From Escherichia coli (GTDB lineage Bacteria > Pseudomonadota > Gammaproteobacteria > Enterobacterales > Enterobacteriaceae): DNA of 64,000 nucleotides. A program made the position numbers and the translations under genes. The notes beneath the pieces were generated by a model. That model had not been told where the DNA came from. It did not search any database and worked only from the letters and a program-made list of their open reading frames with translations. Positions 2,004-64,000 of this stretch are shown here, piece after piece; the stretch's first letter is position 1, and every line of letters starts with the position of its first letter. The stretch lies in the NCBI RefSeq assembly GCF_030384885.1, contig NZ_CP128615.1; one strand, given 5' to 3'.

Positions 2004-2827
2004 GAGTTATTTTTCACGTAGCACACGCACTGTTTATGGATACAGGTATTCTGACCTGAACGCCCGGATCCTTCCACGACAATAAATCGCAGCGCGCGGA
2101 TCCTTTTGTTTGCTTATCACGCATTATTGCGGGTAAAACCAAATACGTAAAGGTATGTTTTGCAGCAGGGATCCCGTATTAAGCCAGTCGTGGCGCGGGC
2201 TGAGGGCTGGTTTGCCGTTTTTGGGAGAAATGGGGTAATGCCAGGGCAAAGATGATCGCAAGGAAAGGAGAAGAATACACAGAGAGGAGAGTTGCGCTAC
2301 GTGAATTCTGGCCCGGGACGTCACCCGTCCCCCTGACCGTTTGACTTTACTCAGGAAGGTTGCAGACTCAACATAGTGACTGATTTATATGTAATCCTGC
2401 CAATGATTAATATAAAAAATAATAATGATTATGCAAAAAATTACTTTCGATAAGATGTATATAATTACAAAACAAGAAAATATATGTGCCTGAAATATAT
2501 CATGCTGAAGATATGAGCTTATATAAGTACCTTATGTATTGCCTGATATACTATTTTCAGAACGGCATGTACATGAATCTGACTCATGATTGCCACTCTC
2601 TTATTTTTTAAGTCCTCGCAAATACAGATAAGTTCTGGCTATAGAACAAGAAAGTACTTTTTAGGAATTTGCATGTGGGTTAACATTTTTTTTGCTATAA
2701 AATACATACAGTTATGTTATCACTTTGCGTTTTGTGCTTAGATCAAAAAAGAATATTCTGATTTTGATAATGTTGAAGGTATTCTGTAAAAAAAATCATT
2801 ATTTATTTTCATCAATTTTGTTAGCGT

Positions 2828-5800: not shown

Positions 5801-7783
5801 AAAGGAGAACGTATAAATATTGGTAATGGTGCATATTCAAAAAATTCTATAAGTATAACCGGAAATTCCATATTTGATTTCGGATCATCTCAGGAATCAA
5901 CCATTGGTGAAGGTGATTACAGCCAGTCGTTAGTTACCATTAATGATGCATCAGTTTATGGTGATGGTTCATTAACTCTGGCAAAAGGTAATAATAGTTT
6001 TGCAGTACTGAATCTTCAGGATAATGCAGTGACTAATGCCAACAACATTTCACTTGCTACAGGACTGGGCAGTAAAGCAATCGTGAATGTTAGTAATATG
6101 AATTCCGGACAGTTCAATCCTGTATCTATGGGAGCAGGAGATGGTTATGCGGAAGTAAATTTTGATGGTGTTAATGGCTATACACTCTCAACTAATTTCA
6201 TTTGTATGGATTCCGGTTCATGTGCAGACACTGTCATAAATGTAAACAGAGGGACAGTTTCTCTGTCAGGAACAAATGACTGGAAAGGGCAGATAAATGT
6301 TTATGACGGAACCCGACTGGATGCAAGGGGGAATGATGCCGTTGATGGTATACTGAATGTCAGCAAAGAAGCACAGGTTGACTTTAACGGATACTCGCAG
6401 CATATGACAGGGATAGATAATAAAGGGATGATTTATCTTTCTGACGGAAGTGCTTCATCAGATGTGTATCTGGATAAAGATTATGTTGCACATGATGGTT
6501 CCGGTGTACAGTTCGGGATTTTCGGGCAGAAAGAGGCGGATGTGATGCATGTTAAAGGTGATACATCCGGGAGTTCAGGTATAGTTGTCACGACAAACAG
6601 TAAAAATAAAATAAAGAAAGGTGGCGACATTCTTCTTGTTGAGGTTAATGGGGACTCATCAGGTAGTTTTTACCTTAACTCACTGATTAAGAATGGTAAG
6701 GAGTATAAGGTGACAGGTGACTACATTGATGTGGGGGCCTGGGAGTATGCGCTGAACAAGAAAAGGAAGAATTGGTATCTGAGTGTGGATATGCGTCCTG
6801 AGCCAGGTGCGTTTATAAACAATAGTAAAAGTATGTTAGATATGTTTGCTCTACAACGGTATGACATACCCGGGCAACATCGTTATCCTACATTGTTTGA
6901 AAACTTATATAACAATGGGATGTGGATTCAATTTAACAACAACTCAGGTAGTAATAGTGAGGTGTATGATAATCTCAAGACCAGTTATAGTTTAAATACT
7001 ATGATGATTGGAGGGGATATATACAATTGGACTGATGGATATAACTATTCACATATCGGGATAATGGGCGGGATGGGGAGTGCCGCTAACAAAACAACGT
7101 CAACAAATAATAAAAGAGCTACCGGAAATGTAGACGGTTATACTCTTGGGCTTTATCATGTATTTCAACAAAATATCAGTGATGGACTAAATGAGTCAGA
7201 ACGTCAGGGGCTGTGGACTTATTCGTCTATACAATACATGGATTATGATAACAGCGTCAGTTCAACAAATAATTTCAAGGCTAATTATGGTGTAAATGGT
7301 TTTCGCCTGACAGGTGAGGTTGGTTATCTAAAAAATATAGGTGGCATACAACCAAGCGATTTCTACGTTGAACCTAAGTTATACCTTTCGCATACTGAGT
7401 TGTCTGGAGGTGTAGTTGAAGATCTTCAGGGAGGGAAAATAACTTATCCGAATTCGCTAACTATTATTGAACCAGGAGTATTTTTCTCTTATCGAAAAAC
7501 TCATGAATCGACTTCCAATGATGAAGCAATGTTTAAAGATTATATAAAACAATCTGTAGTCGATGCATGGTTTGGTGGGGGGTATTCATTTAAAACTGGA
7601 AATTATAGTCGTACTAACTTTGATTCAGATATGGTTGAATATAATACATCGGATAATTTCGCTCTTAAGAGTGGTGTTGAATTTGAATTTTTGAAGGATG
7701 CACGTCTTTTATTAACATCCTCATACTCAATAAATAATGATCGCAACTTGAGTTTTATTCTTGGTGGCAATTATTATTTTTAA
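2828..7783 (+). CDS. Autotransporter (type Va) adhesin-like protein with repetitive beta-helical passenger and C-terminal beta-barrel
   Basis: 1651-aa ORF; N-terminal signal-like segment ending LAYAES (start may be the Met at 2846); Gly/Asn/Ser/Thr-rich repeats; C-terminus ends in aromatic ...NYYF typical of autotransporter barrels; AT-rich. Confidence 0.8.
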   Translation: MFLLSIMKELKKFNRYVMCFFLGARLAYAESIDGSSTINNRDISGSLNIGVWKDASVNINGTVNIKQYFSVATCNGQSSTCPTGGLNASANINNSAKVGASVTIVGDSSKGILDIDGGSSLYTQQLWVSGNDNDKTSNFSDDSNGSLKINNGSNVFVVLSQDNTPFKDNPIKWDQKIISQGNNITDGTVSSGDLVLGKTGNGIIDIDNKSRLDVKNDVVVSTGVDGIPNEKPSLININNESDFLIHGNMKGGISAAGKLQLNMDSSSNLRVDNNITVGIGSGSDISVSAANGSSISATGDFTVATGDNSNANLNLDASNLTVNGVSTIGSGNGSTTKFDIQNSSVVTSGSGMTLAKGKGTQANINISSSKLNTGSLSVGEGEAAKVTMTGNGATVSTGNSFTVAKGNNASATLDYTDSEIDIGSGYIGEGDAAETQLELNNSKLTASDKVFIGQGDTTQTNLTLNNHSSVNVSGEMSVARGSSASVDVTVTNAMLSADSLSLGGGEAAKVTMTGNGATVNSGNSFTVAKGNNASATLDYTDSEIDIGSGYIGEGDAAETQLELNNSKLTASDKVFIGQGDTTQTNLTLNNHSSVNVSGEMSVARGSSASVDVTVTNAMLSADSLSLGGGEAAKVTMTGNGATVNSGNSFTVAKGNNASATLNYTDSKIDIGGGYIGEGDAAETQLELNNSELTASGKVFIGQGNTTQTNLTLNNHSSVNVSGEMSVAQGNSASVDVTVTNAVLSADSLSLGGGEAAKVTMTGNGATISSGNTFTVAKGNNASAALDYSDSKINIGNGYIGVGEKSHTLLKLDNSIFHAAGNIDIGKGSSTIATVSVGAGSNMSIKGNASIGVGDQAKAKFSVKDSVLNIGSSLVLGQGNSTEAEMSVEHSQLYSGSLLLGTANNAVVSMDANDAGISVVGDYIVAKGDGSEATLIYKNSDINLGNGILGAGSGVKTDLSLDNSKFVASDGIIIGEGDNAITNLSISDHSVFKGERINIGNGAYSKNSISITGNSIFDFGSSQESTIGEGDYSQSLVTINDASVYGDGSLTLAKGNNSFAVLNLQDNAVTNANNISLATGLGSKAIVNVSNMNSGQFNPVSMGAGDGYAEVNFDGVNGYTLSTNFICMDSGSCADTVINVNRGTVSLSGTNDWKGQINVYDGTRLDARGNDAVDGILNVSKEAQVDFNGYSQHMTGIDNKGMIYLSDGSASSDVYLDKDYVAHDGSGVQFGIFGQKEADVMHVKGDTSGSSGIVVTTNSKNKIKKGGDILLVEVNGDSSGSFYLNSLIKNGKEYKVTGDYIDVGAWEYALNKKRKNWYLSVDMRPEPGAFINNSKSMLDMFALQRYDIPGQHRYPTLFENLYNNGMWIQFNNNSGSNSEVYDNLKTSYSLNTMMIGGDIYNWTDGYNYSHIGIMGGMGSAANKTTSTNNKRATGNVDGYTLGLYHVFQQNISDGLNESERQGLWTYSSIQYMDYDNSVSSTNNFKANYGVNGFRLTGEVGYLKNIGGIQPSDFYVEPKLYLSHTELSGGVVEDLQGGKITYPNSLTIIEPGVFFSYRKTHESTSNDEAMFKDYIKQSVVDAWFGGGYSFKTGNYSRTNFDSDMVEYNTSDNFALKSGVEFEFLKDARLLLTSSYSINNDRNLSFILGGNYYF
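3952..5230. repeat. Tandem array of about 3.4 near-identical 372-bp (124-codon) coding repeats inside the autotransporter passenger
   Basis: Protein repeat LSVGEGEAAKVTMTGNGATV...NAMLSADS recurs; DNA copies at about 4256-4627 and 4628-4999 differ by only a few bases; antisense ORFs recur at 372-nt spacing. Confidence 0.9.
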
Positions 7784-7829
7784 TCGTTACTGGTGAGGGT
7801 TAGCAATCGTCCAGCAAATTATTTGCAGG

Positions 7830-8102
7830 ATGATTGCTATATTCTGTCATTGGTTTTTTGAGGTAACAATGGTAAGATATCATGGCGAATTTACATACTA
7901 TGTTTATCAACAATCTGGACGTTACTTTTTTTGTAAGAAGCTAACGAAAAAGAGAGATACATCAAATTGTAATCATCTTCATATAATTCGAGAATTATCC
8001 TTCAATGAGGACGAGTTAGAATTAATAGATTTCAGCACAGACGGTTTGGACGCAAATGATAAAGAAATAATCAGGGGAATGATTGATGTGTTGAAAAAAT
8101 AA
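7830..8102 (+). CDS. Hypothetical protein
   Basis: 90-aa ORF in AT-rich DNA; no recognisable motif. Confidence 0.25.
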   Translation: MIAIFCHWFFEVTMVRYHGEFTYYVYQQSGRYFFCKKLTKKRDTSNCNHLHIIRELSFNEDELELIDFSTDGLDANDKEIIRGMIDVLKK

Positions 8103-8224
8103 ATATGTAAAAAAAGAATGTTTTATCAAATGTAACATATTTTCTTTTTTGTGCATGTATCTACCATAATCAAAGTAAATATATGCTTTGTATGTTGTTG
8201 ATTCGAATTAAATAATTTCCGACA

Positions 8225-8425
8225 GTGTATATGATCGATTATATGTTTTGGATAGGGGTTGTACTTTGGTCTACAGTAATAGTCATGTGGTTTTATGATA
8301 ACAAGGCATCATGCTCTGGACTTTTTGCCTTAAGTATATTTATATTTTCAGGTGGAGTTATGATTATGTTGTTTTTAATATCTTTTTTATATGGTGTAAT
8401 ATCAGCGTTAGGCCTTGCGGTATGA
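8225..8425 (+). CDS. Hypothetical small membrane protein
   Basis: 66-aa ORF, two hydrophobic segments. Confidence 0.3.
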   Translation: MYMIDYMFWIGVVLWSTVIVMWFYDNKASCSGLFALSIFIFSGGVMIMLFLISFLYGVISALGLAV

Positions 8426-8528
8426 AATTAATCATTGCGGTTGATTTATTCTCAAGTTGAACTTAAAGAAATCATGCTTATGTAAATATACTATTAAAAG
8501 ACAAAAAGAAGCCATTTAACCTGGAGGA

Positions 8529-9224
8529 GTGATGTATAGAGTTAATCATATTATGAGAACAATAAATGAAATGAGTTCTTATACTCCGCACATGAAAGTA
8601 AACAGAATTGCTGAACGGTTGAGTAAGGTGCAAAAAATATCTTTTTGCATCTCTGTTATTTCTTTTTTTCTTCTTGCCATAATTACTTTGACATATGGGC
8701 CGTTTAATACAAAAAGTAACTTGAGTTTTATTAGCGCATTATCTCTTTATTTTATTAATGTCATTATGGGAGTTACATATTTATCAGTTCCTGTAATTAA
8801 TACAATAAAGTATATATATAATTTTAAAGGGGAGGTGGTCAATGAATTAATATATGACATTGATAGTGATGAGCAACATATTGAAGCATTGTTACCTTAT
8901 TCATTAGAAGAGTTGACATATGTGTCAAACTGTATACAGGTAAGAATTCCCAAAATAAAATCAAAATGTTTCTTATGGGGAGGCGGGAAAACAGCAATTA
9001 TATCAATTTTATGCCTATCGTATTCGGCTATTTGTATCGTTAATGGAGGTAGCATAGATGGTATTTTTGTTGGGGAGACTGGTGATAAAATTATTGTCGC
9101 CATCATGTTTTTTATACTTTACACATCATTGATGAATATGTTTTTCAAACAAAAATTGCTATATTTACAAAATTTAAAAATGATAATAGATATGACTATA
9201 AAGATAAAAAGAAATTTCACATGA
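8529..9224 (+). CDS. Hypothetical multi-pass membrane protein
   Basis: 231-aa ORF with several hydrophobic helices; GGAGG RBS-like sequence upstream. Confidence 0.4.
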   Translation: MMYRVNHIMRTINEMSSYTPHMKVNRIAERLSKVQKISFCISVISFFLLAIITLTYGPFNTKSNLSFISALSLYFINVIMGVTYLSVPVINTIKYIYNFKGEVVNELIYDIDSDEQHIEALLPYSLEELTYVSNCIQVRIPKIKSKCFLWGGGKTAIISILCLSYSAICIVNGGSIDGIFVGETGDKIIVAIMFFILYTSLMNMFFKQKLLYLQNLKMIIDMTIKIKRNFT

Positions 9225-9865
9225 CTGCTACTCTAAAATAAAACAACACATGGGAGACTGTCTATTATTATTAATAACGAGTAACATTTGTTATTGCCAT
9301 TTATGGTGCTCCCGGGATCAGTTTTAACCATAAGCAAGAAAATGTTTCTTTGAACGGTTAGACATCACAAATGAGCGTCTGCCAAAAGTTGATGTAGCGC
9401 TTGCGGAATGTGTTGAGATTATATAGGGAAAGAACTACGGGGAATTATTATTGCCAGGCTTTCTCCTATGAATTTTAGCCATATCAATAGACCTTTGCTC
9501 TCAGTAACGCAAAGAGAGCATCTTTACTGATTGAAGGTAGTCAAGCGACATATGGTCACTTATTTTCTCATGTGTCGCTTGACACTATCCTGAAGTTTTT
9601 TAAGTCGATTTACGTCACCCAAAATGAAAAACTCCTTTGCATGAGTATTCATAATAATATCACAATGGTAAAGCTACATGACAGACATCTTAACTTAGTC
9701 AAGAGAGTACATAACAACTTTGCTATTACATATATTCAGGGTTGTTTGTAGTGGTTCACAAAATCAGGACACTGGAATAACCTGTTTCCACTTTTCTTCA
9801 TGTAAGCAAGGCGATAAACCACCATTGTTTGTATGAGGTCGATAAACGTTGTAATAACAATTTAT

Positions 9866-10117
9866 CTACTGCTTTATATCGCGTACTGCATGACTAAAAT
9901 CACCATAACCACCCTTCGCAAGCCATTTACTTTTAAATCTGTGAAAGACTCTTCCCATCGGCGAATTATCCAGGTAATTCCCTCTGCGACTCATACTTTG
10001 CATCGTCTCATAACGGCAGAGTAAAATTTTGTATTTATTGCTTTTATATTGAACACCTTGATCTGAATGCAACATCAGGTGGCCATCACGCGGTTGTGTT
10101 TCCTGAGCACTATGCAA
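9866..10117 (-). pseudogene. IS3-family transposase (OrfB) C-terminal fragment
   Basis: [10 protein letters not shown]...[15 protein letters not shown] integrase-core remnant; no intact element. Confidence 0.5.
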
Positions 10118-10177
10118 GTAAACGGCTCAACAGAACAGTATTGATATTTACTGAGCGGCCAGATCAACTTTTCAGGG

Positions 10178-11383
10178 TTACAGATCGCGTACCAGGTTTG
10201 CCGACCAGTCCTGGATATGTTCAATGCCGTAACACAGCCATTTTTCCAGCTCCACATTATTCAGACGGCATGTGCCGATCAGCGAGTACAGCACCGCCGC
10301 ATGTTCGCCACCACTGCCGGAACCCGCGAAGAGCCAGTTCTTCCGGCCTATGGCCACTCCCCGTAAGGCGTTCTCTGCGATGTTGTTGTCGATTTCCACC
10401 CAACCATTACTGCAGTACACGTTCCGAGCATCCCGCTACTGCAGCAGGTATGCAAACGCTTTTGCCGTATCCGAGTGACGCGCCAGTGTTTTCATCTGAG
10501 TCTGTATCCAGTCGTACAGTGACTGCATCAGTGGCGCAGGTCTGGCTTTTCTTGCCGCCAGACGCTGTTCTGCTGAACAGCCCCGGACCGCAACCTCGAT
10601 GGCATACAGTTCACTGATACGCTGCAGGGCTTCCATGGTGACGTCGGTTGGCGCTCTTGCATGCACATCGTGGATTTTTCTCCGGGCATGGGCCATACAC
10701 GCGGCTTCCGTTATTCTGCCTGATTCGTATAACGCCCGGTAGCCACCGTAAGCATCGGCTTGAAACACACCGCTGTAACCGGCCAGGTGATTTTGTGAAT
10801 GGATACCTTTCCAGCCGGACTGTACGCGAACCAGACCGCCGGGGGCATCTCCGAGCCGGCATCACGGTCATCACGGACGTAGCACCACTGCCGGACGGTT
10901 CGAGTTTTACCGGCCATCAGCACATACTGGCGCAGTATGTTATACAGCAGCTCCAGTAGTTCGCAACGGAACAGATCCAGCGTGGCACGCCTCAGCTACA
11001 CGCCCTGGCGACGGTATATTTCTGACTCGCGGTATAATGGCAGATGGTCTGCATATTTCCCGGTGACTACATGGGCCTAAAGCCCCGGTCCGGAATAACT
11101 GCTGAAGGCTCAGGTGTCTGCACGATATAGTTGCACCGGCAACAGGCCTGTTTCGGGCGTTGTGTTTCGATAACCTTAAAGGTGCAGCTGATAAGCTCTA
11201 GCAGCTCTGACACATTACACCCCAGAGGGCTGAGCTCACCACCACAGGCCGGGCAGCATTCCTCTTCCGGCCGGATGACCCTGGCTTCATAGGGAAGTGA
11301 GGCTGGTAACGATTTACGGGCTGAAGACTGGCGCAGGGAAGATGGCAGTGCCGGGTCATATTGCTCACCAGTGTTTCTGCCAT
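10178..11383 (-). pseudogene. IS66-family transposase (TnpC) remnant, multiple frame breaks, interrupted by IS3
   Basis: Adjacent ORF pieces (10178-10420, 10436-10768, 10711-10923, 11198-11383) with IS66 TnpC-like sequence in different frames. Confidence 0.6.
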
Positions 11384-52249: not shown

Positions 52250-52843
52250 TTAATTTTTTTTACCGTCTTCAGGCACAAGCTTGAAGGCGCGATAGTAGTT
52301 TTTAGATTCGATCATGCCGAAAGGATGCAAATCCCTTCCGCTATATTCACCCGGATAGAAAAGCACTAATGGCGTGCTACCCATAACGTCTTGCAGAGCA
52401 CTAAGTAACTCATGTCCTCGGATAAGAGGCCACGCACTGCCTAAGCCTGACAGCAACACAAACTCAAGTTCTGATGGCTTATATTTGTCCGCGATATACC
52501 TTGCCACTTTCTCTTGGCTCAGAGGCCCGGCTAGTGTTTTTCGAAGGCCATCAACACCGACTTGCAATTCACGCTGGCAAGCTCGGTCGAAAAGGCCTCG
52601 CTCCTCAAGCATATCTATCAAGACTTCAAAAATATTGAGATGGACAAAGCGGTAACCACGCTTGTTGAGTTTTTCGTCAACGTGCTTAATGTGCTCTCGT
52701 ACAAGCAGTTCATACTTGGCTGGATAGTCAAATACCCAAAATCCAATTTCATTGCCCAAGCCATCGTTTTTCAAAAACTTAGGGCTTTCAATTCGTTCCA
52801 GTATCAGATCAAGCCTGGTCTGAAGAGCCTTCATATTGTGCAC
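52250..52843 (-). CDS. brxB: BrxB (DUF1788)
   Basis: 197-aa ORF between brxA and brxC; assignment by size and synteny. Confidence 0.7.
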   Translation of the reverse strand: MHNMKALQTRLDLILERIESPKFLKNDGLGNEIGFWVFDYPAKYELLVREHIKHVDEKLNKRGYRFVHLNIFEVLIDMLEERGLFDRACQRELQVGVDGLRKTLAGPLSQEKVARYIADKYKPSELEFVLLSGLGSAWPLIRGHELLSALQDVMGSTPLVLFYPGEYSGRDLHPFGMIESKNYYRAFKLVPEDGKKN

Positions 52844-53430
52844 TCCATTACCTCAATCAAATCTTCCCGGCCCAGACGAACTAACCAGTCTTTAACTTCT
52901 GGCATTAGGTAAACAGGTTGTATTTTCTTTGTCCTGCTATCACTCAGGTAGCCACTATCAACCAGTGCCTTAATTGCGTTGTTACCCATTTTTTTGACAG
53001 TTGAGTCAGAAAAACCGCCAAGCTCAGCATATGCCCGCACTCTCGTGTCATAAAACTCAGACCATGCATCAGCGGTTAAAGAGGGTTTATAGGTGCGACG
53101 AGCTTCGGCTAAGGTAAGTCGCATAAAATAAGCGACAACCGGAGAATGAATGAGTAATGACATCATCAGCATTTGGACATAGGCACGTTCACTCGCGGCT
53201 AAAAGATCAGTCATAAACTCATCACCCAGGCCTTCAATACGCCAACGGATTGTTCTGGCATAACGAATAGCCGTCTGACCGGATTTTTTCTGAAGAACAT
53301 TTTGCTCAACGATCAGCGACTTCCACTCATCTTCTGGAAGTTTTTTCAATAGCGATTCTGCGATTATTCTAGATTCAGTTATCAATAAACTGCCTCCGAT
53401 AAGATCGCCTAAATATTCTTTTATATTCAT
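52831..53430 (-). CDS. brxA: BrxA (DUF1819)
   Basis: 199-aa ORF, first structural BREX gene; 13-bp overlap with brxB. Confidence 0.7.
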   Translation of the reverse strand: MNIKEYLGDLIGGSLLITESRIIAESLLKKLPEDEWKSLIVEQNVLQKKSGQTAIRYARTIRWRIEGLGDEFMTDLLAASERAYVQMLMMSLLIHSPVVAYFMRLTLAEARRTYKPSLTADAWSEFYDTRVRAYAELGGFSDSTVKKMGNNAIKALVDSGYLSDSRTKKIQPVYLMPEVKDWLVRLGREDLIEVMECTI

Positions 53431-53439
53431 AAATTCATC

Positions 53440-54366
53440 TCACGATTCGCTATATCCAGGAGCGAGTGCAGCATTGTCAACGCCGTATAGTGCTTCTGGA
53501 TTTTTAAGTGCTAAATGGAACTCTCGCCCATTGCTCTTACAATTCTTTGAACAATCGATATTCCATAAACGCAGTAAATATCCAGCGAACGCAGCTCTTA
53601 TCTCTACACGCAACCTATTGTTTTCCATTGCGTAGTCCATCGATACAGCTTCTGGATGTGCTAGTTTTGGATGAGGTATCAGCTCTAGCTCAACGATTCG
53701 GTTCCATTGCTTATCCCACTGAAGAGTCTCAACTTCGTCGTTAACCTCATCCTCTAACAACTCAACTTCACTTATTCTGGTTAAAACAAAATCCCTAAAT
53801 TCTCTAAGCTTTCTATCGAATGCTCGGACATGCCATCTCAAGCCATTGTCAATCAGGGTATGAGGAACTATTTGCCTGCTCCCATGACCACTCGACAATG
53901 AGGTGTACTCAATATTAATCACAGCGCGCTTATGTATGGCTTCACTAATAGCCGCTACAACTTCCAATTTCGGCTTATTGAGATGGAATGGTGCTTCACA
54001 AGCCATAGGTGGCCTGGCCTTGCCAAGAAAGCCATCACCGAACCCTTGGCTTATCGTCGCAAGAGTTCGAACAACGTCATAATCAAACAACGGCTGGAAT
54101 GCGCTCGTCTTCAAGTGCACTCTGCGCTTTTCGTCATACATAACGTTGTTAGGAGCCAACTCTTTGTACCGCGCAAAATCTTGTGTTGCCACAGACGGCG
54201 CTACGCTAAATCGCTCGGTTAAATAACTACGCCCAGCTTCACCTTTAAATAACAAAGTGAAATCAATATGAGCGAGTCGTTCTCTCTGTGCTTGGCTAAG
54301 CTCTTCAAGTCCAGTGTTGTCTTGCACTGTCAGCCTCTCAATCCATCTGGGACAAGCCCTAATCAT
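53440..54366 (-). CDS. brxR: BrxR-like regulator (wHTH-WYL type)
   Basis: 308-aa ORF immediately upstream of brxA, same strand; assignment by position and size. Confidence 0.6.
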   Translation of the reverse strand: MIRACPRWIERLTVQDNTGLEELSQAQRERLAHIDFTLLFKGEAGRSYLTERFSVAPSVATQDFARYKELAPNNVMYDEKRRVHLKTSAFQPLFDYDVVRTLATISQGFGDGFLGKARPPMACEAPFHLNKPKLEVVAAISEAIHKRAVINIEYTSLSSGHGSRQIVPHTLIDNGLRWHVRAFDRKLREFRDFVLTRISEVELLEDEVNDEVETLQWDKQWNRIVELELIPHPKLAHPEAVSMDYAMENNRLRVEIRAAFAGYLLRLWNIDCSKNCKSNGREFHLALKNPEALYGVDNAALAPGYSES

Positions 54367-54685
54367 TTAAAACTAGGAAGCCATCGATTGAATGCCATCA
54401 AGCAACCTACTTTTTTTCATTAGGTATCATAGTATCAACAAGTCGTCTTGTTGGCTATAAAAATTGGCTTGACGTTGTTCGAATGTTTCTTTTCTGGCCT
54501 TGATAGAAGCTCACGCTGGAATGCCAACTGACGCAATTCATTCTCTCGAACACGCCTAGCAACTTCTGCCTGGGCTGGTAGCTGATCTTGACCCTCCATC
54601 TCCGAACAGCTTTTGTATCTTAAGTTAACGATGTCCGCTGCCGCCGGTATTCCCTCGGGGAGTGATATCCCAGCGCGCTGTGCGG

Positions 54686-54961
54686 GTGGCTTCCATTTCC
54701 ATCAGATGTCCTTCCTGCTCCGCTACTGAAGGCGTGGTGCGTAACGGCAAAAGCACTGCCGGACATCAGCGCTATCTCTGCTCTCACTGCCGTAAAACAT
54801 GGCAACTACAGTTCACTTACACCGCCTCTCAGCCCGGTACGCACCAGAAAATCATTGATATGGCCATGAATGGCGTTGGATGCCGGGCAACCGCCCGCAT
54901 TATGGGCGTTGGCCTCAACACGATTTTACGTCACTTAAAAAACTCAGACCGCAGTCGGTAA
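54686..54961 (+). CDS. insA: IS1 InsA (GTG start)
   Basis: [43 protein letters not shown]... Confidence 0.8.
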
Positions 54962-55383
54962 CCTCACGCATACAACCGGGCAGTGACGTCATTGTTTGCG
55001 CGGAAATGGACGAACAGTGGGGTTATGTCGGCGCTAAATCACGCCAGCGCTGGTTGTTTTACGCGTATGACAGGATACGGAGGACGGTTGTGGCGCACGT
55101 ATTCGGTGAACGCACGTTGTCCACGCTGGAGCGTCTTCTGGGCCTGCTGTCGGCCTTTGAGGTCGTGGTATGGATGACGGATGGCTGGCCGCTTTATGAA
55201 TCACGCCTGAAGGGAGAACTGCACGTTATCAGCAAGCGATATAAGCAGCGCATTGAGCGGCATAACCTGAATCTGAGGCAGCATCTGTCAAGGCTGGGCA
55301 GGAAGTCACTGTCGTTCTCAAAATCGGTGGCGCTGCATGACAAAGTCATCGGGCATTATCTGAACATAAAACACTATCAGTAA
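54880..55383 (+). CDS. insB: IS1 InsB (expressed as InsAB' by frameshift)
   Basis: Overlaps insA in the -1 frame; 167-aa ORF. Confidence 0.8.
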
Positions 55384-55590
55384 GTTGGAGTCATTACCTT
55401 CTTTGCCGCCGGACATTGTCCGGCGCAACACCAAACCGGTCTGGCGGGCTGAGCCAATCCCGCAGGCAAATTCAGCCCTTACCGGATGGCTCAGCCCCCT
55501 ACTCATTGGAATTGGATATTCAACTTTCAGGGGCTACTGCGCCAGACTTCAGTCTTTAAAGTGATTGACTTAGCGCCTGGCACACTCAAT

Positions 55591-55902
55591 TTATTTAGGT
55601 AGCGGGCCTAATTGCACCCCATCAGGATAATACTTCCAGCCATCGCGAATTTTGACATTTTCATCCCACGGAAGTTTGTATTCGCCATTGGCAAGATCGC
55701 GCACCCAGGTCAGGTAATTCTCGCGTTCGCCTCCCGGTTTGCCGACATAGCCCCGGCAGCCAAGGTTGAAAATATTGTTTTCCAACGCCCAGTTTTCACG
55801 CGCTTTATCCACCAGGCGCGGGAACAGCTCTGCGGTAACAATTTCCCATGGGTTGCGGTGCCCCTGCTGAATGACGTTACCGTCATAATTGCAGACCGTA
55901 CC
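55591..55902 (-). pseudogene. C-terminal remnant of an unknown gene truncated by IS903
   Basis: ORF runs into the IS903 left inverted repeat at 55903 with no start. Confidence 0.4.
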
Positions 55903-56959
55903 GGCTTTGTTGAATAAATCGAACTTTTGCTGAGTTGAAGGATCAGATCACGCATCCTCCCGACAACACAGACCATTCCGTGGCAAAGCAAAAGTTCAGA
56001 ATCACCAACTGGTCCACCTACAACAAAGCTCTCATCAACCGTGGCTCCCTCACTTTCTGGCTGGATGATGGGGCGATTCAGGCCTGGTATGAGTCGGCAA
56101 CGCCTTCATCACGGGGAAGGCCCCAGCGCTATTCTGACCTTGCCATCACGACTGTGCTGGTCATTAAACGCGTATTCAGGCTGACCCTGCGCGCTGCGCA
56201 GGGCTTTATTGATTCCATTTTTACACTGATGAATGTTCCGTTGCGCTGCCCGGATTACAGCTGTGTCAGCAGGCGGGCAAAGTCGGTTAACGTCAGTTTC
56301 AAAACGTTCACCCGGGGTGAAATCGCGCATCTGGTGATTGATTCCACCGGGCTGAAGGTCTTTGGTGAAGGCGAGTGGAAAGTCAAAAAGCATGGCCAGG
56401 AACGCCGTCGTATATGGCGAAAGTTGCATCTGGCAGTTGACAGCAACACACATGAAATCATCTGTGCAGACCTGTCGCTGAACAATGTGACGGACTCAGA
56501 AGCCTTCCCGGGTCTTATCCGGCAGACTCACAGAAAAATCAGGGCAGCATCGGCAGACGGCGCTTACGACACCCGGCTCTGTCACGATGAACTGCGGCGT
56601 AAGAAAATCAGCGCGCTTATCCCTCCCCGAAAAGGTGCGGGTTACTGGCCCGGTGAATATGCAGACCGTAACCGTGCAGTGGCTAATCAGCGAATGACCG
56701 GGAGTAATGCGCGGTGGAAATGGACAACAGATTACAACCGTCGCTCGATAGCGGAAACGGCGATGTACCGGGTAAAACAGCTGTTCGGGGGTTCACTGAC
56801 GCTGCGTGACTACGATGGTCAGGTTGCGGAGGCTATGGCCCTGGTACGAGCGCTGAACAAAATGACGAAAGCAGGTATGCCTGAAAGCGTGCGTATTGCC
56901 TGAAAACACAACCCGCTACGGGGGAGACTTACCCGAAATCTGATTTATTCAACAAAGCC
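55903..56959 (+). mobile_element. IS903-group insertion sequence (1057 bp), no target duplication
   Basis: 18-bp terminal repeats GGCTTTGTTGAATAAATC at 55903 and inverted at 56942-56959; flanks GACCGTACC versus AGATGGAAT. Confidence 0.85.
55935..56903 (+). CDS. IS903-group (IS5-family) DDE transposase
   Basis: Sequence recognised as IS903/IS102-type transposase; canonical start may be further downstream. Confidence 0.85.
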
Positions 56960-57040
56960 AGATGGAATAGCCCCGCTCGGTGATTTGGCGGACAGCTTCT
57001 TCCTTAAATTCAGGGGTAAAACGTGGTGTGCCCATAGACT
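56960..57040 (-). mobile_element. About 80-bp fragment of an IS3-family orfA 5' region, inverted relative to 35703-35785
   Basis: Reverse complement closely matches AGTCTATGGGCACATCACGTTTTACCCCTGAATTTAAGGAAGAGGCCGTCCGCCAGATCACCGAGCGGGGCTATTC. Confidence 0.55.
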
Positions 57041-57041
57041 A

Positions 57042-57624
57042 TGACCTGCTCCCCGTTGATTAGTACACCCCGATGTTAGTAATGTCTTCATAAGCCACAT
57101 GAGGACATCCCCATGAAGAAGCGTTTTTCCGACGAACAGATCATCAGTATTCTCCGCGAAGCCGAAGCTGGGGTACCCGCCCGTGAACTCTGCCGCAAGC
57201 ATGCCATTTCCGATGCCACGTTTTACACCTGGCGTAAGAAGTATGGCGGTATGGAGGTGCCTGAAGTTAAGCGCCTGAAGTCGCTTGAGGAAGAGAACGC
57301 CAGACTCAAGAAGCTGCTTGCCGAAGCCATGCTGGATAAAGAGGCGCTTCAGGTGGCTCTTGGGCGAAAGTACTGACGACAGACCAGAAGCGGGAAGCCG
57401 TGATGCTGATGTGTGATGCGACCGGTCTGTCGCAACGTCGTGCCTGCAGGCTTACAGGTTTGTCCCTGTCGACCTGCCGCTATGAGGCTCACCGTCCGGC
57501 TGCTGATGCGCATTTATCAGGGCGCATCACTGAGCTGGCACTGGAGCGCAGGCGTTTTGGCTACCGTCGTATTTGGCAATTGCTGCGCCGTGAAGGGCTT
57601 CATGTTAATCATAAGCGCGTGTAG
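57042..57624 (+). mobile_element. Truncated IS3-family (IS407-group-like) element: intact orfA, orfB cut off
   Basis: Left end begins TGACCTGC; orfA 57113-57376; orfB fragment 57400-57624 ends abruptly. Confidence 0.6.
57113..57376 (+). CDS. IS3-family OrfA
   Basis: 87-aa HTH/leucine-zipper protein MKKRFSDEQIISILREAEAGVPARELCRKHAISDATFYTWRKKYGG. Confidence 0.7.
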   Translation: MKKRFSDEQIISILREAEAGVPARELCRKHAISDATFYTWRKKYGGMEVPEVKRLKSLEEENARLKKLLAEAMLDKEALQVALGRKY

Positions 57625-57873
57625 TGATGCGGACTACGACGTGCGTTTGGTCCAGGACTGCTGCTACGACCCGGATCGGGATGCCCACGAAGCTCTGTTG
57701 CGTTCCGGGTTCGGCGGACGTGTACAGGTCGTGTAATTTTCGGGCCTCGCATGATCGCGGCCATAGCCGCAGGTGGATTGGTGCGAGGCAGGGCCAGTCC
57801 AAGTCAGGGTGCGGTCATCGCGGCGCCTGCAACTCTCAAAAACCCATCGCCGTAGCGGAGGTCTTGTAATCGC

Positions 57874-58758
57874 ATGTCATTACGCACGCCCGATTTATTG
57901 TTCACAGCGATAGCACCTGCCATTTGGGGCAGCACCTACATTGTCACCACCCAATACCTGCCGAACTTCTCACCGATGACGGTCGCGATGCTGCGGGCGT
58001 TGCCGGCGGGTTTATTGCTCGTGATGATCGTCCGACAGATTCCAACGGGAATCTGGTGGATGCGCATCTTCATCCTCGGCGCACTTAATATTTCGCTATT
58101 CTGGAGCTTGTTGTTTATTTCGGTCTACCGCCTGCCGGGCGGGGTCGCGGCGACGGTAGGCGCTGTGCAGCCGCTGATGGTCGTGTTCATCTCTGCCGCT
58201 CTGCTAGGTAGCCCGATACGATTGATGGCGGTCCTGGGGGCTATTTGCGGAACTGCGGGCGTGGCGCTGTTGGTGTTGACACCAAACGCAGCGCTAGATC
58301 CTGTCGGCGTCGCAGCGGGCCTGGCGGGGGCGGTTTCCATGGCGTTCGGAACCGTGCTGACCCGCAAGTGGCAACCTCCCGTGCCTCTGCTCACCTTTAC
58401 CGCCTGGCAACTGGCGGCCGGAGGACTTCTGCTCGTTCCAGTAGCTTTAGTGTTTGATCCGCCAATCCCGATGCCTACAGGAACCAATGTTCTCGGCCTG
58501 GCGTGGCTCGGCCTGATCGGAGCGGGTTTAACCTACTTCCTTTGGTTCCGGGGGATCTCGCGACTCGAACCTACAGTTGTTTCCTTACTGGGCTTTCTCA
58601 GCCCGGGGACCGCCGTGTTGCTAGGATGGTTGTTCTTGGATCAGACGCTGAGTGCGCTTCAAATCATCGGCGTCCTGCTCGTGATCGGGAGTATCTGGCT
58701 GGGCCAACGTTCCAACCGCACTCCTAGGGCGCGTATAGCTTGCCGGAAGTCGCCTTGA
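57874..58758 (+). CDS. pecM: PecM-like EamA/DMT-family transporter (Tn1721 tet module)
   Basis: 294-aa polytopic membrane protein convergent with tetA. Confidence 0.85.
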   Translation: MSLRTPDLLFTAIAPAIWGSTYIVTTQYLPNFSPMTVAMLRALPAGLLLVMIVRQIPTGIWWMRIFILGALNISLFWSLLFISVYRLPGGVAATVGAVQPLMVVFISAALLGSPIRLMAVLGAICGTAGVALLVLTPNAALDPVGVAAGLAGAVSMAFGTVLTRKWQPPVPLLTFTAWQLAAGGLLLVPVALVFDPPIPMPTGTNVLGLAWLGLIGAGLTYFLWFRGISRLEPTVVSLLGFLSPGTAVLLGWLFLDQTLSALQIIGVLLVIGSIWLGQRSNRTPRARIACRKSP

Positions 58759-58789
58759 CCCGCATGGCATAGGCCTATCGTTTCCACGA

Positions 58790-59989
58790 TCAGCGATCGG
58801 CTCGTTGCCCTGCGCCGCTCCAAAGCCCGCGACGCAGCGCCGGCAGGCAGAGCAAGTAGAGGGCAGCGCCTGCAATCCATGCCCACCCGTTCCACGTTGT
58901 TATAGAAGCCGCATAGATCGCCGTGAAGAGGAGGGGTCCGACGATCGAGGTCAGGCTGGTGAGCGCCGCCAGTGAGCCTTGCAGCTGCCCCTGACGTTCC
59001 TCATCCACCTGCCTGGACAACATTGCTTGCAGCGCCGGCATTCCGATGCCACCCGAAGCAAGCAGGACCATGATCGGGAACGCCATCCATCCCCGTGTCG
59101 CGAAGGCAAGCAGGATGTAGCCTGTGCCGTCGGCAATCATTCCGAGCATGAGTGCCCGCCTTTCGCCGAGCCGGGCGGCTACAGGGCCGGTGATCATTGC
59201 CTGGGCGAGTGAATGCAGAATGCCAAATGCGGCAAGCGAAATGCCGATCGTGGTCGCGTCCCAGTGAAAGCGATCCTCGCCGAAAATGACCCAAAGCGCG
59301 GCCGGCACCTGTCCGACAAGTTGCATGATGAAGAAGACCGCCATCAGGGCGGCGACGACGGTCATGCCCCGGGCCCACCGGAACGAAGCGAGCGGGTTGA
59401 GAGCCTCCCGGCGTAACGGCCGGCGTTCGCCTTTGTGCGACTCCGGCAAAAGGAAACAGCCCGTCAGGAAATTGAGGCCGTTCAAGGCTGCCGCGGCGAA
59501 GAACGGAGCGTGGGGGGAGAAACCGCCCATCAGCCCACCGAGCACAGGTCCCGCGACCATCCCGAACCCGAAACAGGCGCTCATGAAGCCGAAGTGCCGC
59601 GCGCGCTCATCGCCATCAGTGATATCGGCAATATAAGCGCCGGCTACCGCCCCAGTCGCCCCGGTGATGCCGGCCACGATCCGCCCGATATAGAGAACCC
59701 AAAGGAAAGGCGCCGTCGCCATGATGGCGTAGTCGACAGCAGCGCCGGCCAGCGAGACGAGCAAGACCGGCCGCCGCCCGAAACGATCCGACAGCGCGCC
59801 CAGCACAGGTGCGCAGGCAAATTGCATCAACGCATACAGCGCCAGCAGAATGCCATAGTGGGCGGTGACGTCGTTCGAGTGAACCAGATCGCGCAGGAGG
59901 CCCGGCAGCACCGGCATAATCAGGCCGATGCCGACAGCGTCGAGCGCGACAGTGCTCAGAATTACGATCAGGGGTCTGTTGGGTTTCAC
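58790..59989 (-). CDS. tetA: TetA(A) tetracycline efflux MFS transporter
   Basis: 399 codons from the GTG at 59989 (KPNRPLIVILSTVALDAVGIGLIMPVLPGLLRD...). Confidence 0.95.
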   Translation of the reverse strand: MKPNRPLIVILSTVALDAVGIGLIMPVLPGLLRDLVHSNDVTAHYGILLALYALMQFACAPVLGALSDRFGRRPVLLVSLAGAAVDYAIMATAPFLWVLYIGRIVAGITGATGAVAGAYIADITDGDERARHFGFMSACFGFGMVAGPVLGGLMGGFSPHAPFFAAAALNGLNFLTGCFLLPESHKGERRPLRREALNPLASFRWARGMTVVAALMAVFFIMQLVGQVPAALWVIFGEDRFHWDATTIGISLAAFGILHSLAQAMITGPVAARLGERRALMLGMIADGTGYILLAFATRGWMAFPIMVLLASGGIGMPALQAMLSRQVDEERQGQLQGSLAALTSLTSIVGPLLFTAIYAASITTWNGWAWIAGAALYLLCLPALRRGLWSGAGQRADR

Positions 59990-60037
59990 GTCTGGCCTCC
60001 GGACCAGCCTCCGCTGGTCCGATTGAACGCGCGGATT

Positions 60038-60085
60038 CTTTATCACTGATAAGTTGGTGGACATATTATGTTTATCAGTGATAAA
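60038..60085. promoter_or_regulatory. tetO operators / divergent tetA-tetR promoters
   Basis: Palindromic TATCACTGATAA and TATCAGTGATAA between the divergent genes. Confidence 0.7.
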
Positions 60086-60094
60086 GTGTCAAGC

Positions 60095-60745
60095 ATGACA
60101 AAGTTGCAGCCGAATACAGTGATCCGTGCCGCCCTGGACCTGTTGAACGAGGTCGGCGTAGACGGTCTGACGACACGCAAACTGGCGGAACGGTTGGGGG
60201 TTCAGCAGCCGGCGCTTTACTGGCACTTCAGGAACAAGCGGGCGCTGCTCGACGCACTGGCCGAAGCCATGCTGGCGGAGAATCATACGCATTCGGTGCC
60301 GAGAGCCGACGACGACTGGCGCTCATTTCTGATCGGGAATGCCCGCAGCTTCAGGCAGGCGCTGCTCGCCTACCGCGATGGCGCGCGCATCCATGCCGGC
60401 ACGCGACCGGGCGCACCGCAGATGGAAACGGCCGACGCGCAGCTTCGCTTCCTCTGCGAGGCGGGTTTTTCGGCCGGGGACGCCGTCAATGCGCTGATGA
60501 CAATCAGCTACTTCACTGTTGGGGCCGTGCTTGAGGAGCAGGCCGGCGACAGCGATGCCGGCGAGCGCGGCGGCACCGTTGAACAGGCTCCGCTCTCGCC
60601 GCTGTTGCGGGCCGCGATAGACGCCTTCGACGAAGCCGGTCCGGACGCAGCGTTCGAGCAGGGACTCGCGGTGATTGTCGATGGATTGGCGAAAAGGAGG
60701 CTCGTTGTCAGGAACGTTGAAGGACCGAGAAAGGGTGACGATTGA
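60095..60745 (+). CDS. tetR: TetR(A) repressor
   Basis: 216 codons from MTKLQPNTVIRAALDLLNEVG... Confidence 0.95.
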   Translation: MTKLQPNTVIRAALDLLNEVGVDGLTTRKLAERLGVQQPALYWHFRNKRALLDALAEAMLAENHTHSVPRADDDWRSFLIGNARSFRQALLAYRDGARIHAGTRPGAPQMETADAQLRFLCEAGFSAGDAVNALMTISYFTVGAVLEEQAGDSDAGERGGTVEQAPLSPLLRAAIDAFDEAGPDAAFEQGLAVIVDGLAKRRLVVRNVEGPRKGDD

Positions 60746-61043
60746 TCAGGACCGCTGCCGGAGCGCAACCCACTCACTACAGCAGAGCCATGTAGACAAC
60801 ATCCCCTCCCCCTTTCCACCGCGTCAGACGCCCGTAGCAGCCCGCTACGGGCTTTTTCATGCCCTGCCCTAGCGTCCAAGCCTCACGGCCGCGCTCGGCC
60901 TCTCTGGCGGCCTTCTGGCGCTCCTGCTGCGGCGTCCGCTCGTGGGCCGTGGCGCGGGTCCGCGCGCCGGCCTCGTGCGCCTGGCGCTCGCGGGCGAGGT
61001 CCAGGGCGGCCGTCTTCACGTTCTGCCTTGCGCAGATGAGATA

Positions 61044-61081
61044 GGGGAGCCCGCAGAATTCGGAAAAAATCGTACGCTAAG
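61044..61081. repeat. 38-bp Tn1721/Tn3-family terminal inverted repeat
   Basis: GGGGAGCCCGCAGAATTCGGAAAAAATCGTACGCTAAG; the tnpA stop lies inside it. Confidence 0.85.
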
Positions 61082-64000
61082 GTTTTCCGGGCATCCGTAA
61101 GGGCCGAAACTTCCCGTCTTCCAGTCTGCGGCTCTGCCGCCAGACGTAATCGCCGGTTAGGTTGATGTGCTCCCAGCCCAGCGGCGACAGGAATTGCAGC
61201 AGCTCGCCGTCCACCGGCTTGCCGGCCTCGACCAACCCCTGGGTGGCGCGTTCCAGGTACACCGTGTTCCACAGCACGATAGCCGCCGTCACCAGGTTGA
61301 GGCCGCTGGCCCGGTAGCGCTGCTGCTCGAAGCTCCGATCCCTGATTTCCCCAAGGCGGTTGAAGAACACCGCCCTGGCCAGCGAGTTGCGCGCCTCACC
61401 TTTGTTCAGGCCGGCATGCACGCGGCGGCGCAGTTCAACACTTTGCAGCCAGTCCAGGATGAACAGCGTGCGCTCGATCCGGCCCAGCTCGCGCAGGGCC
61501 ACGGCCAGTCCGTTCTGGCGCGGGTAGCTGCCGAGCTTGCGCAGCATCAGCGAGGCGGTGACGGTGCCCTGCTTGATCGAGCTGGCCAGGCGCAGGATGT
61601 CGTCCCAGTGGGCACGCACGTGCTTGATGTTCAGGGTGCCGCCGATCAGCGGGCGCAACGTCGGGTAGGCTTGCACGCCCTGCGGCACGTACAGCTTGGT
61701 TTCGCCGAGGTCGCGGATGCGCGGCGCGAAGCGGAAGCCTAGCAGGTGCATCAGGGCAAAGACGTGATCGGTGAAGCCGGCCGTGTCGGTGTAGTGCTCC
61801 TCGATCCGCAGGTCGGACTCGTGGTACAGCAGGCCGTCGAGCACATAGGTGGAATCGCGGACGCCGACATTCACCACGCGGGTGCTGAACGGCGCGTACT
61901 GGTCGGAGATATGGGTATAGAACAGCCGTCCCGGCTCGCTACCGTACTTCGGGTTGACGTGCCCGGTGCTCTCGCCCCGGCCACCCGCGCGGAAGCGCTG
62001 GCCATCGGAGGATGAGGTCGTGCCGTCGCCCCAGTGGGCGGCAAAGGCGTGGCGATACTGGTGGTTGACCAGCTCGGCCAAGGCCGCCGAATAGGTTTCG
62101 TCGCGGATGTGCCAGGCTTGCAGCCAGGACAGCTTGGCGTAGGTCAGGCCGGGGCTCGACTCGGCCATCTTGGTCAGCCCGAGGTTGATCGCATCACCGA
62201 GGATTGCGGACAGCAGCAACGTCCTGTCTTTGGCCTCGGCCCCGTCCTTCAAGTGGGTGAAGTGGCGGCTGAAGCCCGTCCAGTCGTCCACGTCCATCAG
62301 CAGTTCGGTGATCTTGATGCGCGGCAGTAACTGGCTGGTTTGGTCGATCAGCGCCTGCGCCCGATCCGGCACCGCCGCATCCAGCGGGGTGATTTTCAGC
62401 CCTGACTCGGTGAGGATGGCATCGGGCAGCTCGTTGTCCTTGGCCAGGCGGGTGACGGTGGCCAACTGCTCGTCCAGCAGCTGCAAACGCTCTTCCAGGT
62501 ACTGGTCGCTGTTCGGGTTGATCGCCAGGGGCAGGGCCTGCTCGCGCTTGAGTGCGGCGAACTTCTCGGCCGGCAGCAGGTAGTCGTCGAAGTCGCGGAA
62601 CTGCCGCGAGCCCTTGACCCAGATGTCGCCGGAGCGCAGGGCGTTCTTCAGCTCGGACAGGGCGCAGATTTCGTAGAATTTCCGGTCGAGGCCTTCCGGG
62701 GTGATCACCAGCGGCTTCCAGCGCGGCTTGATGAAGGCCGTGGGTGCATCGGCCGGCACCTTGCGCAGGTTGTCGGCGTTCATCTCACGCAGGGTCTGCA
62801 CGGCTGCCAGCACGCCTTGCGCGGCCGGCGCGGCGCGCAGTTCCAGCACCTCCAGCAAGGCCGGCGTGTAACGGCGCAGGGTGGCGAAGTTCTCGCCGAC
62901 CAGGTGCAGGTGGTCGAAGCCTTCCGGCCGGGCCAGCAGCTCGGCCTCGCTGACGCTCTCGGTGAACTCGTCCCAGGGAATCACCGCCTCGATGGCGGCA
63001 TAGGGGTCGCTGCCGCTTTCCTTCGCTTCCAGCAGCGCCTGGCCGATCCTGGAGTACAGGCGCACCTTGTCGTTGATCGCCTTGCCCTGCTTCTGGAACT
63101 GCTGCTGATGCTTGTGCTTCGCGCCGCTGAACAGCTTGACCAGGATGCGGTCATGCAGATCGACCAGCTCATCGATCACGGTCGCGGTGCTCTCCAGCAC
63201 CACGGCGGCCAGGGTCGCGTAGCGGCGCTGCGGCTCGAACTTACCGAGGTCTTTGGGCGTCATCTGCCCACCCTCGCGGGCCAGCTTGAGCAGGCGGTTC
63301 TGGTGGATGTGCCGGCCCAGGCCTTCGGGCAAGTCCACCAACTGAAATGTCTTCAGCCGCTCGATGTGTTCCAGCATGTGCCGAGAGTTGGGTTTCAGCG
63401 GTGCCTGGCGCAGCCAGGTCAACCAGGTGATGCTGCTGCCGGCCTTGAGCTTCAACAGCTCGTCCAGCTTGGCCCGATGCGAGTCCGTGAGTGGTTCGAC
63501 CAGGGCGCGGTAGACCCGCCGATTGGCTCGCGCAATGGCTTCCGAGCAGGCCCGGTCAATCACGCTCAGCGCCGGCAGGATGCGTCGTTTCTGCCGTAGG
63601 CTCTCCAGGGCCTGACCGGCCAGCAGCAAGCCTTTGTCGGTCTGCTGGGCCAGCTCGGTTAGCTCGCGCACCAGGGCGCGGAAGTCGGACAGGCCGAACG
63701 GGGCCAGTTGCAGGTAGGTGCGCAGTTCCTGGGCATGCTCGCGACGGGTCACGTCGCGCTCGCCGTACTTTGCCCAGCTCGCCGGCTCGGCCTGGACTTG
63801 CTTCGCCACCCACAGGATGACCGGCTCGGGCAGCTCGCTGTCGGTTCCCAGCGCGTAACCGGGGTAGCGCAGCAGGCAGAGCTGCACGGCGAAGCCGAGG
63901 CGGTTGGCGTCGCCGCGTCGCTGGCGGATCAGCGACAGGTCGGAGTCGTTGAAGGTGTAGTAGCGGATCAGGTCATCCTGGCTTTCCGGCAGCGCAAGCA
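61077..64000 (-). CDS. tnpA: Tn3-family transposase TnpA (Tn1721-type), N-terminus beyond the window edge
   Basis: At least 936 aa with the Tn3-family DDE region; ORF still open at 64000. Confidence 0.9.

Follow-up and report, generated by a model that had tools for sequence, protein, structure and literature searches.

A tet(A) region of Escherichia coli read as Tn1721 without its tet-side end

Tn1721 and the corresponding region of the window

Tn1721 (reference X61367; Tn21 subgroup of the Tn3 family) has been described as an element with three 38-bp inverted repeats (IRs), a partial duplication of tnpA, a platform of pecM, tetA and tetR, and a Tn1722 able to transpose on its own (PMC6205034). 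The intact element is made up of two parts. One is the self-sufficient, cryptic Tn1722, comprised of IRL, mcp, res, tnpR, tnpA and IRRI. The other, appended to it, contains tetR, tetA, pecM, what is left of a hydrolase ORF, a second copy (1.8 kb) of the 3' end of tnpA, and the third repeat, IRRII. One sequence serves as both IRRI and IRRII when the element is intact, and IRL differs from it at three positions. Tn1721 with tet(A) is an ordinary and very widespread element.

The DNA analyzed here is a stretch of 64,000 nucleotides of E. coli (the window). Its positions 57622–64000 are 100% identical to Tn1721 as found on thousands of plasmids, and to pKPS30 over 6,379 bp. Gene content, order and orientation are likewise those of Tn1721, and plasmid-borne copies are 99.98–100% identical to the region. 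The canonical order is kept in the window: the 3' hydrolase remnant, pecM, tetA(A), two tet operators and tetR(A), followed by IRRI and tnpA. The initial annotation had placed pecM, tetA(A), tetR(A), the operators, the IR and part of tnpA in this arrangement, and each was found where it had been placed or a few bases away. The carrier of the module is an E. coli-type F plasmid. As a Tn1721 reference, pFBAOT6 was tried and set aside; it has ISApu2 and ISApu1 annotated where tnpA should stand.

An intact Tn1721 of 11,128 bp with three IRs is present in pKP037-1. An alignment to Tn1721 had been proposed at the outset, and was run with the sequence of a sister plasmid (NZ_CP123330.1, E. coli AREA_497). 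The element corresponds to positions 2067–11128 of the intact copy, with two mismatches in 9,062 bp. What is missing on the pecM side is the first 2,066 bp of Tn1721, namely IRRII, the 1,786-bp tnpA duplication and 280 bp; in pKPS30, the tnpA duplicate and IRRII are found upstream of the hydrolase ORF. Of the three 38-bp IRs, the window has IRRI only, while the sister record has IRL and lacks IRRII. The duplicated tnpA 3' end beside IRRII is likewise absent, as homology begins at Tn1721 position 2067. We are highly confident that the region is the Tn1721 tet(A) transposon without its tet-side end, that is, ΔTn1721. It thus differs from Tn1721, where positions 1–2066 from the IRRII end are present, and is not a complete tet-mobilizing transposon.

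The 38-bp IRRI (61044–61081, plus strand) is an exact 38/38 match to the IR of Tn1721/Tn1722, where chance alone would give 0 matches. The repeat has its outer end at 61044, and therefore the tet genes lie outside Tn1722. On the minus strand, tnpA, encoding a Tn3-family transposase of the TnAs1/Tn1721 type, occupies 61077–64000 and continues past the window edge. Its frame is open across all 974 codons within the window (codons 15–988 of 988), the first 14 codons being beyond the edge. The product is a DDE transposase of the Tn3 type, scoring 1289 bits against a cut-off of 500 with NCBIfam transpos_Tn3 and matching Pfam DDE_Tnp_Tn3 and DUF4158. The gene had been described as a 3' part of tnpA; tnpA is indeed there, but its truncation is only that of the window edge, and in the sister record the gene is whole (2,967 bp). 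A search beyond the window for the rest of the transposon, which had also been suggested, located tnpR, mcp and IRL in NZ_CP123330.1, followed by the IncF backbone. The IRRI and tnpA of the window are identical to those of Tn1722, and the sister plasmid carries a 5.6-kb unit with IRL, mcp, tnpR, tnpA and IRRI that would be, with its presumed res site, the full Tn1722. Inside the window, this unit is represented only by IRRI and 974 tnpA codons; the whole Tn1722 core would be present beyond base 64000, where it is known only from NZ_CP123330.1.

The tet genes and their control region

The outermost Tn1721 sequence on the tet side is a 115-bp piece of the ORF for an isochorismatase-family cysteine hydrolase (57622–57736, plus strand; Tn1721 positions 2067–2181). 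It retains the last 37 codons and the stop, and matches positions 136–164 of the 175 in the Pfam Isochorismatase profile (E=6.6e-4). Since this remnant separates an IS3-family fragment from pecM, the break lies inside the hydrolase ORF and not beside pecM. The pecM gene itself (57874–58758, plus strand; Pfam EamA, E=1.6e-39) is intact and encodes an EamA/DMT-family transporter of 294 aa, which is WP_000058717.1 in the identical sister record.

The tetracycline efflux MFS pump gene tetA(A) (58790–59989, minus strand) starts with GTG and encodes 399 aa. It was searched for inactivating changes, which would have spoken against a working determinant, and none were found. The pump is full length by the allele-specific Tet(A) model (NCBIfam NF012193), scoring 892.6 bits against a cut-off of 840 over residues 2–395 of 399. 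In the identical sister record, tetA(A) is WP_000804064.1. By the residue profile of PMC10745318, TetA carries all seven signature residues of tet(A)-v1, the "type 1 tet(A) variant" (R5, M55, V75, A84, A201, S202 and F203), and none of the extras of v2–v5. It does not differ from tet(A)-v1, which is also the allele given by PGAP to WP_000804064.1 and is very common. Published work has linked tet(A)-v1 to reduced tigecycline susceptibility, or raised tigecycline MICs.

The repressor gene tetR(A) (60095–60745, plus strand; 216 aa; WP_000164043.1) is intact as well, with 305.1 bits against a cut-off of 265 for NCBIfam NF010319 and matches to Pfam TetR_N and TetR_C_1. It diverges from tetA, and between the two genes lies a control region (60038–60086) with two palindromic TetR operators at 60038–60052 and 60072–60086, an arrangement expected of a TetR-regulated operon. 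The palindromes have 15-nt arms that are 100% complementary, and overlap divergent promoter-like sites: a TTGACA/CATAAT site at 60092–60065 on the minus strand, and plus-strand sites at 60040–60087. In total, four promoter-like sites were found in the control region versus 0.2 expected. Because tetA and tetR, along with the two operators and the divergent promoter-like sites, are intact and base-for-base the same as on thousands of resistant plasmids, the host should show TetR-regulated, tetracycline-inducible efflux resistance. Between tetR and IRRI there is an 80-codon ORF (60777–61019, minus strand), which belongs to canonical Tn1721 and which PGAP calls a transposase (WP_000844627.1). It matched no Pfam or NCBIfam family, and its coding status is therefore doubtful.

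The junction and its possible origins

The hydrolase remnant is abutted by the 5' fragment of an ISSen4-like IS3-family insertion sequence (582 of 1,221 bp; 57042–57623, plus strand). The fragment begins at 57042 (TGACCTGCTCCCC) and contains the left inverted repeat, orfA (57113–57376) and the first ~74 codons of orfB (57400–57621); the orfB fragment ends at a TAG at 57622–57624. Up to 57623, where homology stops, the fragment has 100% identity with an intact copy of 1,221 bp in NZ_CP024857.1, and its identity to copies annotated as ISSen4 or IS3 family is 98.8–99.7%. PGAP lists it as an incomplete ISSen4-family transposase, with matches to Pfam HTH_Tnp_1 and HTH_21 and to the IS3 family in NCBIfam, and neither NCBIfam nor Pfam detected an rve domain in it. 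In contrast to ISSen4 (IS3 family, IS407 group), only the first 582 bp are present here, without the right IR and most of orfB, including its catalytic part. Thus the pecM side ends in a truncated IS3-family element in place of the second transposon end, as the initial annotation had it. Its description of the module as capped by IS fragments applies to this side, and not to the other, which has none.

When the window was set against intact IS3 and Tn1721 sequences, the junction fell at a TA dinucleotide (57622–57623) common to both: IS3 reads …GCGTGTA and then CCGG, and Tn1721 reads …GGGCTA and then GTGATG. We read this as the result of a deletion. On one side, it took the outer 2,066 bp of Tn1721, comprising IRRII, the tnpA duplicate and the 280 bp running into the hydrolase ORF; on the other, it took the 3' 639 bp of the neighboring ISSen4-like element. 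The two broken ends are joined at the common TA. Because element ends are found at neither side of the junction, we infer that the join was illegitimate, of the microhomology type, and not a transposase product.

In the E. coli A10 and J2 plasmids from Panama, Tn1721 begins at the same TAGTGATGCGG. Their partner at the break is a fragment of a DNA methyltransferase gene, and their IRL flank differs too. In both lineages the intact partner reads GT(G/T)TA followed by CC, and TA is common to both joins. A random microhomology deletion alone does not explain why the Panama plasmids break at the same Tn1721 nucleotide with a different partner.

If the break at position 2067 were a recurrent, site-specific event and not two unrelated random deletions, then either a TA-duplicating (IS630-type) element would have entered the CTAG of the hydrolase remnant, rearranged its flank and later been excised, or the site would be a hot spot of double-strand breaks that are mended through TA microhomology. 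CTAG is the preferred IS630 target. The same nucleotide being broken with another partner in A10 and J2, and the TA at both joins, are consistent with this idea, and by a rough estimate the chance that two end points would coincide in ~2.9 kb among some ten truncated lineages is a few percent. A coincidence at that level may still occur, however, and the partner types known are only two. Genome, metagenome and viral contigs, a protein survey of the hydrolase C-terminus and PLSDB yielded neither a third partner nor an IS at this TA (the BLAST search for a third partner gave 1,204 matches, including 13 partial E. coli records not itemized). A pattern requiring a non-C base before TAGTGATG… had no match in genome_contigs, metagenome_contigs or viral_contigs; the unconstrained pattern matched seven metagenome contigs, all intact across the 2067 site, and the viral contigs had no copy of the break-site sequence, whether intact or broken. 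In the protein search, the other truncations ended elsewhere, two of these being IS26 ends, and the 2067 site was not among them. In neither lineage is the 9-kb unit flanked by target-site duplications, and no rare SNPs common to both lineages link them. The SNP comparison is uninformative on how the lineages are related, because the two differences from pKP037-1 occur in that plasmid only. We consider recurrence at this site unlikely. If it were true, a single kind of truncated 9-kb unit, made of tet(A) and Tn1722, would have repeatedly formed or moved and become attached to different partners via TA, and a TA-specific element since lost, or a hot spot of breakage, would be suspected.

Two other readings are less probable still. 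The tet module could be part of an IS-bounded composite (pseudo-compound) transposon mobilized by a nearby IS1, IS903 or IS3, given that IS1 (54686–55398), IS903 (55902–56959) and two IS3-type fragments stand immediately to the left. In the sister plasmid, however, no matching IS is found on the far side, where Tn1722 gives way to the IncF backbone; the IS3 fragment next to the module has neither a right end nor most of orfB, and IS903 has no 9-bp target duplication. Such a composite is very improbable. The region's wealth of repeated mobile elements would favor the idea that the junction is an assembly chimera, but we give it hardly any weight: the join is in unique sequence and not at a repeat, and exactly this junction is seen in a plasmid that was deposited separately and differs elsewhere from the window. 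This second, distinct plasmid, NZ_CP123330.1, is 100% identical to window positions 52663–64000 and about 100% identical to 34660–64000, while against the first 34 kb of the window it is rearranged and 72–98% identical (mostly 94–98%). Since the junction is shared by a separate plasmid that differs over the first 34 kb, it is real and inherited.

Consequences and distribution of the truncated element

The tet genes now lie beyond the one IR pair that is left, IRL-IRRI, and, by the established Tn3-family mechanism, would no longer be able to transpose as Tn1721. With IRRII lost, they would be fixed to the plasmid backbone, and their movement would now depend on that of the plasmid or on another rearrangement, IS-mediated or homologous. 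The Tn1722 core, judging from the identical sister plasmid, is probably still mobile and would leave the tet genes behind. As had been noted, the module is adjacent to a phage-defense island, and a BREX system lies directly upstream. One plasmid thus holds both tet(A) and BREX, and since the two adjoin, both traits travel together. Beyond routine resistance annotation, the significance of the locus is small.

A possible ancestor with the same IRL insertion site was sought in PLSDB, where the IRL junction occurs in no record; the IS3-Tn1721 junction was also absent from PLSDB. Among complete E. coli genomes, the IS3-Tn1721 junction was present in 1 out of 5,426. Because it is this rare, the junction could serve as an epidemiological marker of the plasmid lineage.

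Gene content and comparison with Tn1721

Genes were called from the ORF list together with family scans (Pfam and NCBIfam). From left to right, these revealed an IS3-family orfA (57113-57376), the first 74 codons of an IS3-family orfB (57400-57624), the 3' end (37 codons, up to 57736) of an ORF for an isochorismatase-family hydrolase, pecM/EamA (57874-58758, plus strand), tetA(A) (58790-59989, minus strand; 399 aa, GTG start; 892.6 bits with the NCBI Tet(A) model, cut-off 840) and tetR(A) (60095-60745, plus strand; 305 bits, cut-off 265). The 38-bp inverted repeat (IR) of Tn1721 is present as an exact match at 61044-61081, where the chance expectation is zero matches. Between tetR and this repeat (IRRI) lies an 80-codon ORF (60777-61019) annotated as a 'transposase' (WP_000844627.1); it matched no family in Pfam or NCBIfam, and the label therefore looks unsupported. 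The Tn3-family transposase gene tnpA, on the minus strand, occupies the remainder of the window from 61077. The initial annotation had recorded only the 3' part of tnpA, which holds within the window but not for the gene: its frame is open across all 974 codons inside the window and only 14 codons lie past base 64000, and thus the cut is an effect of the window edge, with none in the DNA itself.

The stretch 57622-64000 is 100% identical to pKPS30 over 6,379 bp, bearing out the canonical Tn1721 order previously described for pecM, tetA(A), tetR(A), the tet operators, the 38-bp repeat and tnpA. It is 99.97% identical to p2_BE2-5, and matching sequence was found in more than 5,000 plasmid records. 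In matching plasmids the hydrolase ORF has 130 codons, and ahead of it stand the 3' end of tnpA, duplicated over 1,786 bp, and an extra copy of the 38-bp repeat. The complete Tn1721 of pKP037-1 (11,128 bp, all three repeats) agrees with the published element, which carries three IRs of 38 bp, a partly duplicated tnpA, a Tn1722 able to transpose on its own and a pecM-tetA-tetR platform (PMC6205034). In the alignment to the pKP037-1 copy, a check proposed in the initial annotation, the window element begins at Tn1721 position 2067, counted from the IRRII end. Compared with intact Tn1721, it lacks IRRII, the tnpA duplicate and 280 bp reaching into the hydrolase ORF. The pecM side has indeed lost the second transposon end and meets a truncated IS3 element, whose homology extends to 57623. 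The first observation is thereby confirmed, and its interpretation is supported apart from small corrections; the element is well known, and its degraded state is a common one.

Regulation and allele of the tet operon

The resistance operon is intact and has the same sequence as copies in thousands of resistance plasmids. Two palindromic operators (60038-60052 and 60072-60086; core TTATCA[C/G]TGATAA) lie in the tetA-tetR intergenic region, overlapping promoter-like sites, one on the minus strand close to the consensus (TTGACA/CATAAT) and others on the plus strand. On what is established for class A tet determinants, TetR would use the two operators to keep both promoters repressed, and its release by tetracycline would allow TetA-mediated efflux. 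Relative to the reference in PMC10745318, TetA carries I5R, V55M, I75V, T84A, S201A, F202S and V203F; its residues (R5, M55, V75, A84, A201, S202, F203), with no extra v2-v5 changes, identify it as the tet(A)-v1 allele. In cloning experiments, the five variants with these residues increased the tigecycline MIC 8- to 16-fold, and the reference allele fourfold (PMC10745318). Since tet(A)-v1 is the commonest allele, its presence here is expected and not novel.

The IS3-Tn1721 junction and a shared breakpoint

The IS3 fragment is ISSen4-like, with 98.8-99.7% identity to copies annotated as ISSen4 or IS3 family. Up to 57623 it matches at 100% identity the complete 1,221-bp element carried by the IncR plasmid NZ_CP024857.1, which also has the BREX-IS1-IS903-IS3 block found in the window. 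Intact IS3 reads …GCGTGTA|CCGG, intact Tn1721 reads …GGGCTA|GTGATG, and the window reads …GCGTGTAGTGATG. Because TA is present in both intact reads, the join was placed on these two bases (57622-57623); the TAG that it forms ends the orfB fragment. No element terminus lies on either side of the join, and we therefore infer an illegitimate, microhomology-type deletion, not a transposition product. The junction was found in 1 of 5,426 complete E. coli genomes, on plasmid unnamed1 (NZ_CP123330.1) of AREA_497, an isolate from human stool in Athens, Georgia, and was absent from PLSDB records.

In A10 and J2, two E. coli from Panama, plasmid copies of Tn1721 likewise begin at position 2067 (TAGTGATGCGG…), with a truncated DNA methyltransferase gene as partner instead of IS3. 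This breakpoint falls at about 9008-9010 in NZ_CP195144.1. With …TGTTA|CCAG in the intact methyltransferase, TA is common to this join too, and the two partners have GT(G/T)TA|CC in common. A10 was the one studied closely, and its IRL flank differs as well; no SNPs linking the window and Panama lineages were found. Truncation across this Tn1721 site is rare (13 partial matches in 1,204 E. coli records), and by a rough estimate the breakpoint could be shared by coincidence with a chance of a few percent. A site-specific cause or hot spot is unlikely: a survey of genomes, metagenomes, viral contigs, hydrolase proteins and PLSDB yielded no third partner or IS at the 2067 site, and no target duplications were found around the truncated Tn1721 unit.

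Mobility and surroundings of the module

Across the retrieved stretches, NZ_CP123330.1 and window 34660-64000 share 99.99-100% identity (a 29-kb block running from an IS3 fragment through BREX to Tn1721), whereas its identity to the first 34 kb is just 72-98% (mostly 94-98%), with rearrangement. This plasmid is therefore a sister of the window replicon, not the replicon itself. The window replicon is a mosaic, which suggests block exchange among F-type plasmids. The rest of the transposon, which the initial annotation had proposed to seek beyond the window, was recovered there in part: the complete tnpA is followed by tnpR, mcp and IRL, which differs from the IRR sequence at 3 positions, and then by IncFII backbone, while the IRRII end is lost on the pecM side. 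Therefore NZ_CP123330.1 contains the full Tn1722 core, with the tet genes immediately beyond its edge. Tn3-family transposition requires two terminal IRs. IRL and IRRI would be the sole pair left, and with tetA outside this pair we infer that the tet genes would no longer be transposable as Tn1721; Tn1722 is probably still transposable.

To the left of the module lie IS1 (54686-55398), a formamidase (amiF) fragment (55591-55902), IS903 (55902-56959) and an 82-bp piece encoding an IS3-type OrfA N-terminus (56960-57041, minus strand; Pfam HTH_Tnp_1, E=6e-5). IS903 separates the amiF fragment from this piece, and comparison of its flanks for a 9-bp target duplication found none (GACCGTACC versus AGATGGAAT on opposite sides). 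The 82-bp piece belongs to another IS3-type orfA, which places the ISSen4-like element within an older IS3-type element. In NZ_CP024857.1 (7542-12322), the intact ISSen4-like copy is followed by genes for an AAA-family ATPase and a nuclease-domain protein, which may be another defence gene pair; the window lineage lacks this pair. Further left, past IS1, amiF and IS903, is a type 1 BREX system, the phage-defence island that had been noted nearby. BREX type 1 also lies close to Tn1721 in pPO125 (NZ_MW077912.1, 4327-29326), of the IncY plasmid family, with yacAB in between; its Tn1721 keeps an intact IRRII end, unlike that of the window. BREX and tet(A) thus occur side by side on plasmid backbones that are not related.
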